Shown piece after piece: positions 7,701 through 10,895 of a stretch of 10,895 bases of DNA. A program made the position numbers and the translations under genes. How positions within the stretch are numbered: the first letter of the stretch is position 1; every line of letters starts with the position of its first letter. The DNA is from Escherichia coli (GTDB lineage: Bacteria; Pseudomonadota; Gammaproteobacteria; Enterobacterales; Enterobacteriaceae). The notes below the pieces were generated by a model, which was not told the DNA's origin, did no database searches, and saw only the letters and a list, made by a program, of their open reading frames with translations. The stretch lies in assembly GCF_003334315.1 (NCBI RefSeq), contig NZ_QOWR01000087.1; one strand, written 5' to 3'.

Positions 7701-7880
<180 letters not shown>

Positions 7881-7997: not shown

Positions 7998-8084
7998 GCG
8001 AAGGTGGCGGAATTGGTAGACGCGCTAGCTTCAGGTGTTAGTGTCCTTACGGACGTGGGGGTTCAAGTCCCCCCCCTCGCACCA
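7998..8084 (+). tRNA. tRNA-Leu (anticodon CAG), leuQ/leuP/leuV family; single copy in this window
   Basis: 87-nt sequence gcgaaggtggcggaattggtagacgcgctagcttcaggtgttagtgtccttacggacgtgggggttcaagtcccccccctcgcacca. It has class II tRNA features: long variable arm, CAG anticodon in the loop cuUCAGgu, T-loop GGTTCAAGTCC and an encoded 3' CCA. Confidence 0.95.
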
Positions 8085-9325: not shown

Positions 9326-10003
9326 TTAATAGGGATGCAACACATTACTTGCTTCGCAATGCCGCATACATAACAGAATATCTGCGGCCTCCAACAACCC
9401 TGCATCAGAACTGACGCCCAGTTTCGACATCACATTAAATTTATGTGCACGGATCGTTTTGATATTGCGTTTAAGCTGCTCGGCAATTTGTGTCATTGAG
9501 TAGCCACGCGACATAAAGCGCAATATTTCTCTCTCCGTGGGGCTTAGCGTCCGGCTTTGGTTAATGTACCACTGATTGTTCAGTCGGTCGGTCGCCTGAC
9601 GTACACCATTTAATGACAAAAAGAGTTCCTGATGAAAAATCTCCAGCGTTGACGCTTTACTTAATACACCGTCCAGCGGTGATGGCGACAATGAACCAAT
9701 CAGCCGAGCTTCAATATCATCATCCGCAATAACTAAACGCCGGGTACGCGGAAACTTAATCGCCAGTTCAGTCAGGCAAGATAATCCCTCTCTGCGCTCA
9801 CTTCTCATGGCAGAAAAAGAAAAAATGACCGCCGCAAACGAGATCCGCGTCATGGCATCCTGAAATGACTCCTGACTGGTATAGGTATGGAGCTTATAAG
9901 GGTTACCCGCAAACTTTCTGAATAAACTCTCAATACCGATACTACTCATGACGCATTTTTCTATGAGTGCGACATTTCTCTTCTTAATTCGGCTGTGTTC
10001 CAT
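9326..10003 (-). CDS. bglJ: LuxR/FixJ-type transcriptional activator BglJ
   Basis: 225-aa [31 protein letters not shown] with a C-terminal LuxR-type HTH ([44 protein letters not shown]). The start overlaps the 3' end of yjjQ by 43 nt. Confidence 0.92.
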
Positions 10004-10442
10004 TCTGCGGCATCTCCATAAACAGAAGGCAAGTTAAGTTCTCTTGCACCCTGCGCGCTATTTATCCATGCATACATTTCAGCGTTGCTGTGAATTGCCA
10101 GTCGACGCATCGCACTGTTTTTTTGGGCGCTGATAGTTTTATTACTTTTCTTAAGCAATGAAGCTATCTGGTTGATGCCCCATCCTTTACCTAATAGCCG
10201 CAGTACCTTGCGCTCTGAAAGAGTGAGAATGACGGAGCGATAGCTAAAATCATGAGTTTCAGTCATTGCCGGAGAGGTCAGCATGGCGCTGATACGCTCT
10301 GCGTGCGTATTGCCGGAACGTACGGTCTTGACCAGATTCTCAATGGGTTCAACATCAGACAATAACGTCGCCGTAGGGCACATGAGCAGTTCTACTGCCT
10401 GGGAATACCAGGAGCGTGACACCATGAAAACCCAGTGAATTT
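9961..10442 (-). pseudogene. yjjQ: yjjQ (LuxR-type regulator), 3' portion only; 5' part separated by an IS1 insertion
   Basis: The reading frame ending at 9961 with a LuxR HTH ([42 protein letters not shown]) stays open upstream of the ATG at 10425, encoding ..[12 protein letters not shown].., up to the IS1 terminus at 10443. From memory full-length YjjQ is about 241 aa, so roughly 87 N-terminal codons are displaced beyond the IS. A 154-aa ORF (9961-10425) remains that could in principle be translated. Confidence 0.75.
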
Positions 10443-10895
10443 GGTAATGACTCCAACTTATTGATAGTGTTTTATGTTCAGATAATGCCCGATGACTTTG
10501 TCATGCAGCTCCACCGATTTTGAGAACGACAGCGACTTCCGTCCCAGCCGTGCCAGGTGCTGCCTCAGATTCAGGTTATGCCGCTCAATTCGCTGCGTAT
10601 ATCGCTTGCTGATTACGTGCAGCTTTCCCTTCAGGCGGGATTCATACAGCGGCCAGCCATCCGTCATCCATATCACCACGTCAAAGGGTGACAGCAGGCT
10701 CATAAGACGCCCCAGCGTCGCCATAGTGCGTTCACCGAATACGTGCGCAACAACCGTCTTCCGGAGACTGTCATACGCGTAAAACAGCCAGCGCTGGCGC
10801 GATTTAGCCCCGACGTATCCCCACTGTTCGTCCATTTCCGCGCAGACGATGACGTCACTGCCCGGCTGTATGCGCGAGGTTACCGACTGCGGCCT
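10443..10895 (-). mobile_element. IS1 insertion sequence, right end (partial; continues beyond the window)
   Basis: Terminal sequence ggtaatgactccaacttattgatagtg matches the IS1 right inverted repeat, followed by the insB reading frame. The element is 768 bp in full, so about 315 bp lies outside the window. The flanking 9 bp agtgaattt (10434-10442) is the candidate target-site duplication. Confidence 0.92.
10458..10895 (-). CDS. insB: IS1 transposase InsB reading frame (part of InsAB'), 5'-truncated by the window edge
   Basis: Translation ..[125 protein letters not shown] matches IS1 InsB. The frame is open to the window end. Confidence 0.9.

Follow-up and report, generated by a model that had tools for sequence, protein, structure and literature searches.

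The conserved 43-nt yjjQ-bglJ overlap in an Escherichia coli genome with IS1 inserted in yjjQ

Introduction

The yjjQ and bglJ genes of E. coli form one operon that is silenced by H-NS and activated by LeuO (Stratmann 2008, as cited in PMC5025477 and PMC3950696), and the operon has been described as driven by Ptet when this promoter is placed before yjjQ (PMC9678765). BglJ acts with a known partner, RcsB. Functional BglJ has been obtained from plasmids that carry bglJ alone, and the bglJC allele, an insertion designated yjjQ/bglJ-Y6::mTn10-cmR, produces functional BglJ constitutively (PMC5025477, PMC3950696, PMC6698644). In addition, IS insertions in the yjjP/yjjQ intergenic region have been reported to be adaptive in the mouse gut (PMC4674774, PMC5094792), and for the inflamed gut yjjQ has been reported as a target of mutation (bioRxiv 10.64898/2026.05.27.728231).

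Here we describe the yjjQ-bglJ junction in a 10,895-nt stretch of E. coli DNA (the window). The window shares the synteny of K-12 around yjjQ-bglJ (b4365-b4366), that is, yjjP ... yjjQ-bglJ, convergent fhuF, yjjZ, tRNA-Leu and rsmC, but differs from K-12 in that yjjQ is broken by IS1 after nt 244 and in that a single tRNA-Leu(CAG) gene replaces the three of K-12. As in the bglJC allele, a transposable element is found at yjjQ, upstream of an intact bglJ. However, the bglJC element is a mini-Tn10 with documented constitutive bglJ expression, whereas that of the window is an IS1 for which no outward promoter was found. The mouse-gut insertions affect the same locus through the same kind of mutation, with IS1 among the elements; they are nevertheless intergenic and linked to an approximately 2-fold rise in yjjP expression, whereas the insertion in the window lies within the yjjQ coding sequence.

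With regard to the surrounding region, the tRNA-Leu(CAG) gene (7998..8084, plus strand) is present as three tandem copies, leuQ-leuP-leuV, in K-12 and in several other strains. The single-copy form matches approximately 501 of 5426 complete genomes, which identifies it as a common lineage variant. Between rsmC and the tRNA gene lies a REP-type repeat (7768..7850, minus strand) that corresponds to Rfam naRNA4 (RF02564, 70.3 bits).

Geometry of the yjjQ-bglJ junction

The features that define the junction are as follows.

9961..10003, minus strand: region shared by yjjQ and bglJ, 43 nt, read in two frames
9326..10003, minus strand: bglJ coding sequence, 225 codons plus stop (225 aa), intact, 99.1% identical to K-12 BglJ
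10001..10003, minus strand: bglJ start codon ATG, within the yjjQ codons GAA-TGG (Glu-Trp), invariant in all orthologous loci examined
9961..9963, minus strand: yjjQ stop codon TAG, drawn from BglJ codons 13-15 (CTC ATA GAA)
10034..10036, minus strand: TAA closing the bglJ frame upstream, 30 nt upstream of the ATG

Analysis of the ORFs and comparison with K-12 and other strains showed that yjjQ is followed by bglJ on one strand, beside the convergent fhuF. A previous sequence-only reading had placed the bglJ start 43 nt inside the 3' end of yjjQ, and our analysis bears this out: the bglJ ORF extends over 10003..9326 and the yjjQ TAG occupies 9963..9961, leaving 9961..10003 common to both. These bases encode BglJ codons 1-14 plus one further base, and the last 13 sense codons and the stop of YjjQ, with the TAG beginning 40 nt downstream of the bglJ ATG. 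From the upstream TAA to residue 19, the bglJ frame contains no ATG, GTG or TTG other than the ATG at 10003. The same reading had proposed a comparison with K-12. In the MG1655 annotation, yjjQ extends over 4603477..4604202 and bglJ over 4604160..4604837, an overlap that is also 43 nt long, and all junction bases are identical to those of the window. The overlap is thus genuine and conserved, and since the annotation of E. coli K-12 already includes it as part of a characterized operon, it should be regarded as ordinary.

It should be noted that the third base of BglJ codon 14 creates the yjjQ TAG. This codon (9962..9964, minus strand) is the rare Ile codon ATA in Escherichia and the Val codon GTA in Citrobacter. 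S. arizonae has GTC as codon 14 and lacks the TAG; its YjjQ continues for another 9 nt to a TGA that overlaps BglJ Met19.

The bglJ start codon

Long same-strand overlaps frequently correspond to mis-annotated starts. As such overlaps are often mis-called, the start inside yjjQ was put to the test against the only other candidate, located outside yjjQ.

9947..9949, minus strand: ATG of BglJ Met19, sole candidate start outside yjjQ, 11 nt past the yjjQ stop, judged internal

A scan of species-representative genomes identified 30 bglJ loci, distributed among Escherichia, many Citrobacter, Salmonella enterica subsp. arizonae, Intestinirhabdus and Pluralibacter. An ATG within the 3' end of yjjQ is present in every locus carrying both genes, and this ATG, together with a GGAG 10 nt upstream, is invariant in approximately 28 loci from Escherichia, Citrobacter, Salmonella arizonae and Intestinirhabdus. 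The two genes share 43 nt in Escherichia and 52 nt in S. arizonae, against 40 nt in both Citrobacter and Intestinirhabdus.

Codon changes among 20 distinct orthologous sequences were then counted in both frames over bglJ codons 9-14, the final 16-18 nt that the two genes share. Read in the bglJ frame, 27 changes are synonymous and 16 non-synonymous; read in the yjjQ frame, the same sequences give 2 synonymous and 26 non-synonymous changes. Third positions of bglJ codons are variable in five of the six codons and second positions in none. The 11 nt from the yjjQ stop to Met19 continue in the same phase, with 34 synonymous and 9 non-synonymous changes in the bglJ frame. This substitution pattern indicates that selection in the overlap acts on the bglJ frame, not on the yjjQ frame.

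We also examined the predicted protein. BglJ harbors a GerE/LuxR helix-turn-helix (HTH) domain (PF00196, residues 152-203, E = 2.4e-12) and matches the C-terminal domain of RcsB. The Pfam Response_reg profile gave no match to BglJ, which suggests that its receiver is divergent in sequence, and the fold was therefore tested by structure prediction. An AlphaFold2 model built from 25 sequences (mean pLDDT 73.6, a moderate value, and approximately 62-73 over residues 1-20) presents a complete five-strand/five-helix receiver fold followed by the HTH, and the top Foldseek matches among solved structures are full-length RcsB, with 200-217 aligned columns. With an HTH and a receiver fold, the latter predicted, BglJ resembles response regulators of the FixJ/NarL (LuxR) type. 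In the model, strand 1 comprises residues 9-15 and helix 1 residues 18-30, with Met19 at the beginning of this helix.

Taking these data into account, it is very improbable that the overlap is an annotation artefact and that BglJ starts at Met19, perhaps by reinitiation after termination of yjjQ. Besides the general frequency of mis-annotated starts among long overlaps, what speaks for this alternative is that the Met19 ATG is kept in every locus, 11 nt past the yjjQ stop or, in S. arizonae, overlapping it. However, the paralogue YjjQ has a Met18 at about the equivalent position of the fold, and the conservation of Met19 can therefore be read as that of a structural residue. Codons 9-18, upstream of Met19, are under purifying selection in the bglJ frame, and the residues that they encode include strand 1 of the receiver, a fold that aligns with full-length RcsB; initiation at Met19 would remove this central strand. 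In addition, no purine-rich Shine-Dalgarno (SD) sequence is visible before Met19. Met19 was thus rejected as the true start. The annotated bglJ start inside yjjQ is sound and well supported, with comparative and structural evidence locating initiation before residue 9. The literature searched, which did not include Giel 1996 and Stratmann 2008, yielded no experiment that maps the BglJ N-terminus directly. A minor reinitiation product from Met19 may exist in addition to that starting at ATG 10003.

Ribosome-binding site and coupling to yjjQ

Upstream of the bglJ start we identified a putative ribosome-binding site.

10014..10017, minus strand: SD-like GGAG, 10 nt before the bglJ ATG, within the yjjQ Tyr-Gly-Asp codons and inside TATGGAGA

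The segment TATGGAGA (10020..10013), which contains the GGAG, is unchanged in all 20 distinct orthologous sequences. This invariance includes two yjjQ third positions (Tyr TAT and Gly GGA), while adjacent third positions vary, indicating that selection acts on the nucleotides themselves, as expected for a ribosome-binding site. Folding of 151-nt and 71-nt regions around the start revealed no RNA structure masking it. Both regions are less stable than their dinucleotide shuffles (z = +1.34 for 151 nt and +1.91 for 71 nt), and no base pair of the minimum-energy structure involves the AUG. An Rfam scan of the junction gave no match. A terminator-like stem at 9952..9971 was considered and discarded, as it forms only on the plus strand and its G-T pairs correspond to C-A mismatches in the mRNA.

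Coupling by termination and reinitiation is associated with a stop and a start within 1-4 nt of each other. Gene pairs with 1-nt or 4-nt overlaps (ATGA or TGATG) resemble yjjQ-bglJ in being same-strand overlaps within one operon. Nevertheless, yjjQ-bglJ differs from them in the 40 nt that separate start from stop, in its own conserved SD, and in an unstructured start region; moreover, the codon nearest to the terminating ribosome is Met19, which is not the real start. The distance of 40 nt from ATG 10003 to TAG 9963 is not that of a stop near a start, and the start is not sequestered in the way that coupling by unfolding would demand, as the AUG is unpaired and stability is below that of the shuffles.

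The sequence-only reading had held that bglJ translation is normally linked to yjjQ transcription and probably to its translation. The first part agrees with the published operon; the second is not borne out by the data presented here. Substantial translational coupling, by which disruption of yjjQ by IS1 would strongly lower BglJ even when the mRNA is made, appears quite unlikely. The two genes do share an operon, ribosomes translating yjjQ must cross the SD and ATG of bglJ, and an untranslated remnant of 440 nt before bglJ could invite Rho-dependent termination. However, bglJ has a conserved, autonomous SD, folding predicts no structure that would sequester it, the bglJ start and the yjjQ stop lie 40 nt apart, and functional bglJ is obtained both from the mini-Tn10 insertion allele and from plasmids with bglJ alone. 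We infer that bglJ translation is largely autonomous of yjjQ translation. Since yjjQ ribosomes cross the bglJ start region in the wild type, some coupling, positive or negative, may occur in strains with an intact yjjQ.

IS1 is inserted within yjjQ

Upstream of the junction, yjjQ is interrupted, and three features describe what remains.

10443..10895, minus strand: right-hand 453 nt of IS1, with the InsB C-terminus ...HYLNIKHYQ followed by its stop and the terminal repeat ...GGAGTCATTACC; cut by the end of the window
9961..10442, minus strand: 3' remnant of yjjQ, 482 nt (nt 245-726 of the gene), pseudogene
10423..10425, minus strand: first start codon in the yjjQ remnant, an ATG corresponding to YjjQ Met88, with no SD upstream

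The element was identified as IS1 by its terminal inverted repeat and the InsB reading frame. It differs by 3 mismatches from the IS1B copy of strain HZ13, and PGAP annotates an IS1 family transposase for the same sequence. IS1 has the orientation of yjjQ-bglJ, and the TAA of InsB lies approximately 17 nt before the end of IS1. The right end of IS1 is at 10443 and yjjQ resumes at 10442, which corresponds to nt 245 of 726, the second base of codon 82; because IS1 abuts yjjQ at this point, only the last 482 nt of the gene are present. An intact yjjQ of 241 codons is consequently not found in the window, and bglJ is the only intact gene of the pair. Equivalent yjjQ fragments in other strains are annotated as "incomplete; missing N-terminus".

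Normal translation of yjjQ is ruled out in this strain, as IS1 interrupts the gene after nt 244 of 726, and the yjjQ stretch that overlaps bglJ is probably translated barely. The yjjQ frame meets a TGA inside IS1 (10503..10501). It should be noted that the remnant is open from Met88 to the stop (9961..10425, minus strand), a stretch of 154 aa in which the LuxR-type HTH is complete. Translation of this stretch, if it occurs, could yield an N-terminally truncated DNA-binding fragment, although no SD is visible.

The sequence-only reading had also proposed that any polarity or promoter activity of an IS1 located upstream would be passed directly to bglJ. This is only partly correct. Since the two genes share an operon, changes in transcription that enter the 3' end of yjjQ also reach bglJ; IS1, however, lies inside yjjQ and not upstream of it. 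The insertion is thus a yjjQ knockout that parts bglJ from its regulated promoter, rather than an element that precedes an intact operon.

Effect of IS1 on bglJ expression and recurrence of IS1 in yjjQ

IS1 is classically polar in both orientations. We searched the minus strand from 10895 to 9250, including the IS1/flank hybrid and the yjjQ remnant, and found no sigma-70-like promoter with at least 9 of 12 matches to the consensus. A looser scan of the minus strand gave only two 8/12 matches, both with poor spacers (15 and 19 nt).

To place this insertion in context, we compared it with IS1 insertions in 5426 complete E. coli genomes. IS1 is present within approximately 1.3 kb upstream of bglJ in the orientation of the window in 22 genomes and in the opposite orientation in 39. 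By record spans, these correspond to approximately 16 and 17 distinct positions, respectively, of which approximately 9 and 8 are inside yjjQ. An identical IS1 junction in the orientation of the window was not found among the 5426 genomes. Four insertions were mapped by sequence, in strains HZ13, MB53, ZH142 and CUVET19-1426. The IS1 of HZ13 is flanked by a 9-bp target duplication, GATTAAAGA, at yjjQ nt 223-231, 22 nt from the window site. That of MB53 is at nt 224, next to which nt 64-223 are missing. That of ZH142 is at approximately nt 244, 1 nt from the window site and in the opposite orientation, and that of CUVET19-1426 is at nt 254. The insertions in HZ13, MB53, CUVET19-1426 and W21 are 10-22 nt from the window site, and the cluster as a whole covers yjjQ nt 223-262, equivalent to about 10425..10464 of the window without IS1.

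At least five independent IS1 events appear to have occurred within 40 bp of the window site (loci L002, L003, L034 and L035). The loss of yjjQ sequence in MB53 (locus L003, 3664..4495) resembles an IS1-mediated adjacent deletion.

Considering the bglJC precedent, the IS1 of the window could be an activating insertion of the same type, which would relieve silencing or send transcription outward, make BglJ constitutive and turn on bgl, leuO and other BglJ-RcsB targets. The mini-Tn10 at yjjQ/bglJ that makes bglJ constitutive argues for this explanation, as do the direction of IS1, which reads towards bglJ, the repeated selection of neighboring yjjP/yjjQ intergenic IS insertions in the mouse gut, and the recurrence of IS1 in yjjQ of natural isolates. 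Nevertheless, we consider it doubtful. No hybrid or consensus promoter is found at or past the end of IS1, IS1 is polar both ways, and the mouse-gut study measured yjjP and not bglJ. Natural insertions are, in addition, about equally frequent in both orientations by distinct positions (approximately 16 and 17; 22 and 39 genomes), and this lack of orientation bias counts against an outward promoter carried by IS1 as the selected feature. Taking into account the general polarity of IS1, the most likely net effect of the insertion is polarity, with bglJ less coupled to its native promoter and weak read-through at most, rather than a new strong promoter.

The missing orientation bias fits either a target preference of IS1 or an effect independent of orientation, such as the loss of YjjQ or the disturbance of H-NS silencing. 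Because bglJ has an autonomous start signal inside yjjQ, the two genes are separable by mutation, and the recurrent insertions at yjjQ nt 223-262, which occur in unrelated natural isolates and in either orientation, might have been selected for loss of the YjjQ repressor while BglJ is kept and possibly partly unsilenced. We regard such selection as unlikely; alternatively, the cluster would reflect a mere target preference of IS1 for AT-rich, H-NS-bound DNA.

Discussion

Our analysis makes it very probable that, jointly, the yjjQ-bglJ overlap is native and conserved, bglJ starts at ATG 10003 with its own SD, its translation is essentially autonomous, and yjjQ is split by IS1. In the proposed picture, the 43-nt overlap represents the native and conserved architecture of the operon, with BglJ initiating at ATG 10003 through its own GGAG, within a C-terminal tail of YjjQ that would be dispensable. 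The shared bases specify a short leader at the N-terminus of BglJ and the first part of strand 1 in its predicted RcsB-like receiver, and the bglJ frame is under selection while the tail of YjjQ drifts. Both genes are carried on one transcript, on which the translation of bglJ would be essentially autonomous.

In the strain studied here, IS1, in the same orientation as the operon, splits yjjQ at codon 82 and leaves bglJ overlapping with a pseudogene remnant, so that 768 bp of IS1 part bglJ from the H-NS/LeuO-controlled yjjQ promoter, which lies beyond the window. Being separated from its native promoter by IS1, bglJ would have to be expressed from transcription that survives passage through IS1 or that leaves it.

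The current understanding of the yjjQ-bglJ locus is unchanged by this analysis, and the IS1 hot spot in yjjQ is an only modestly new thread. With a sound start and its own conserved ribosome-binding site, bglJ would not be inactivated by the disruption of yjjQ in itself. Since BglJ and RcsB turn on silent loci repressed by H-NS, bgl and leuO among them, the manner and timing of BglJ synthesis are the central question for this regulon.
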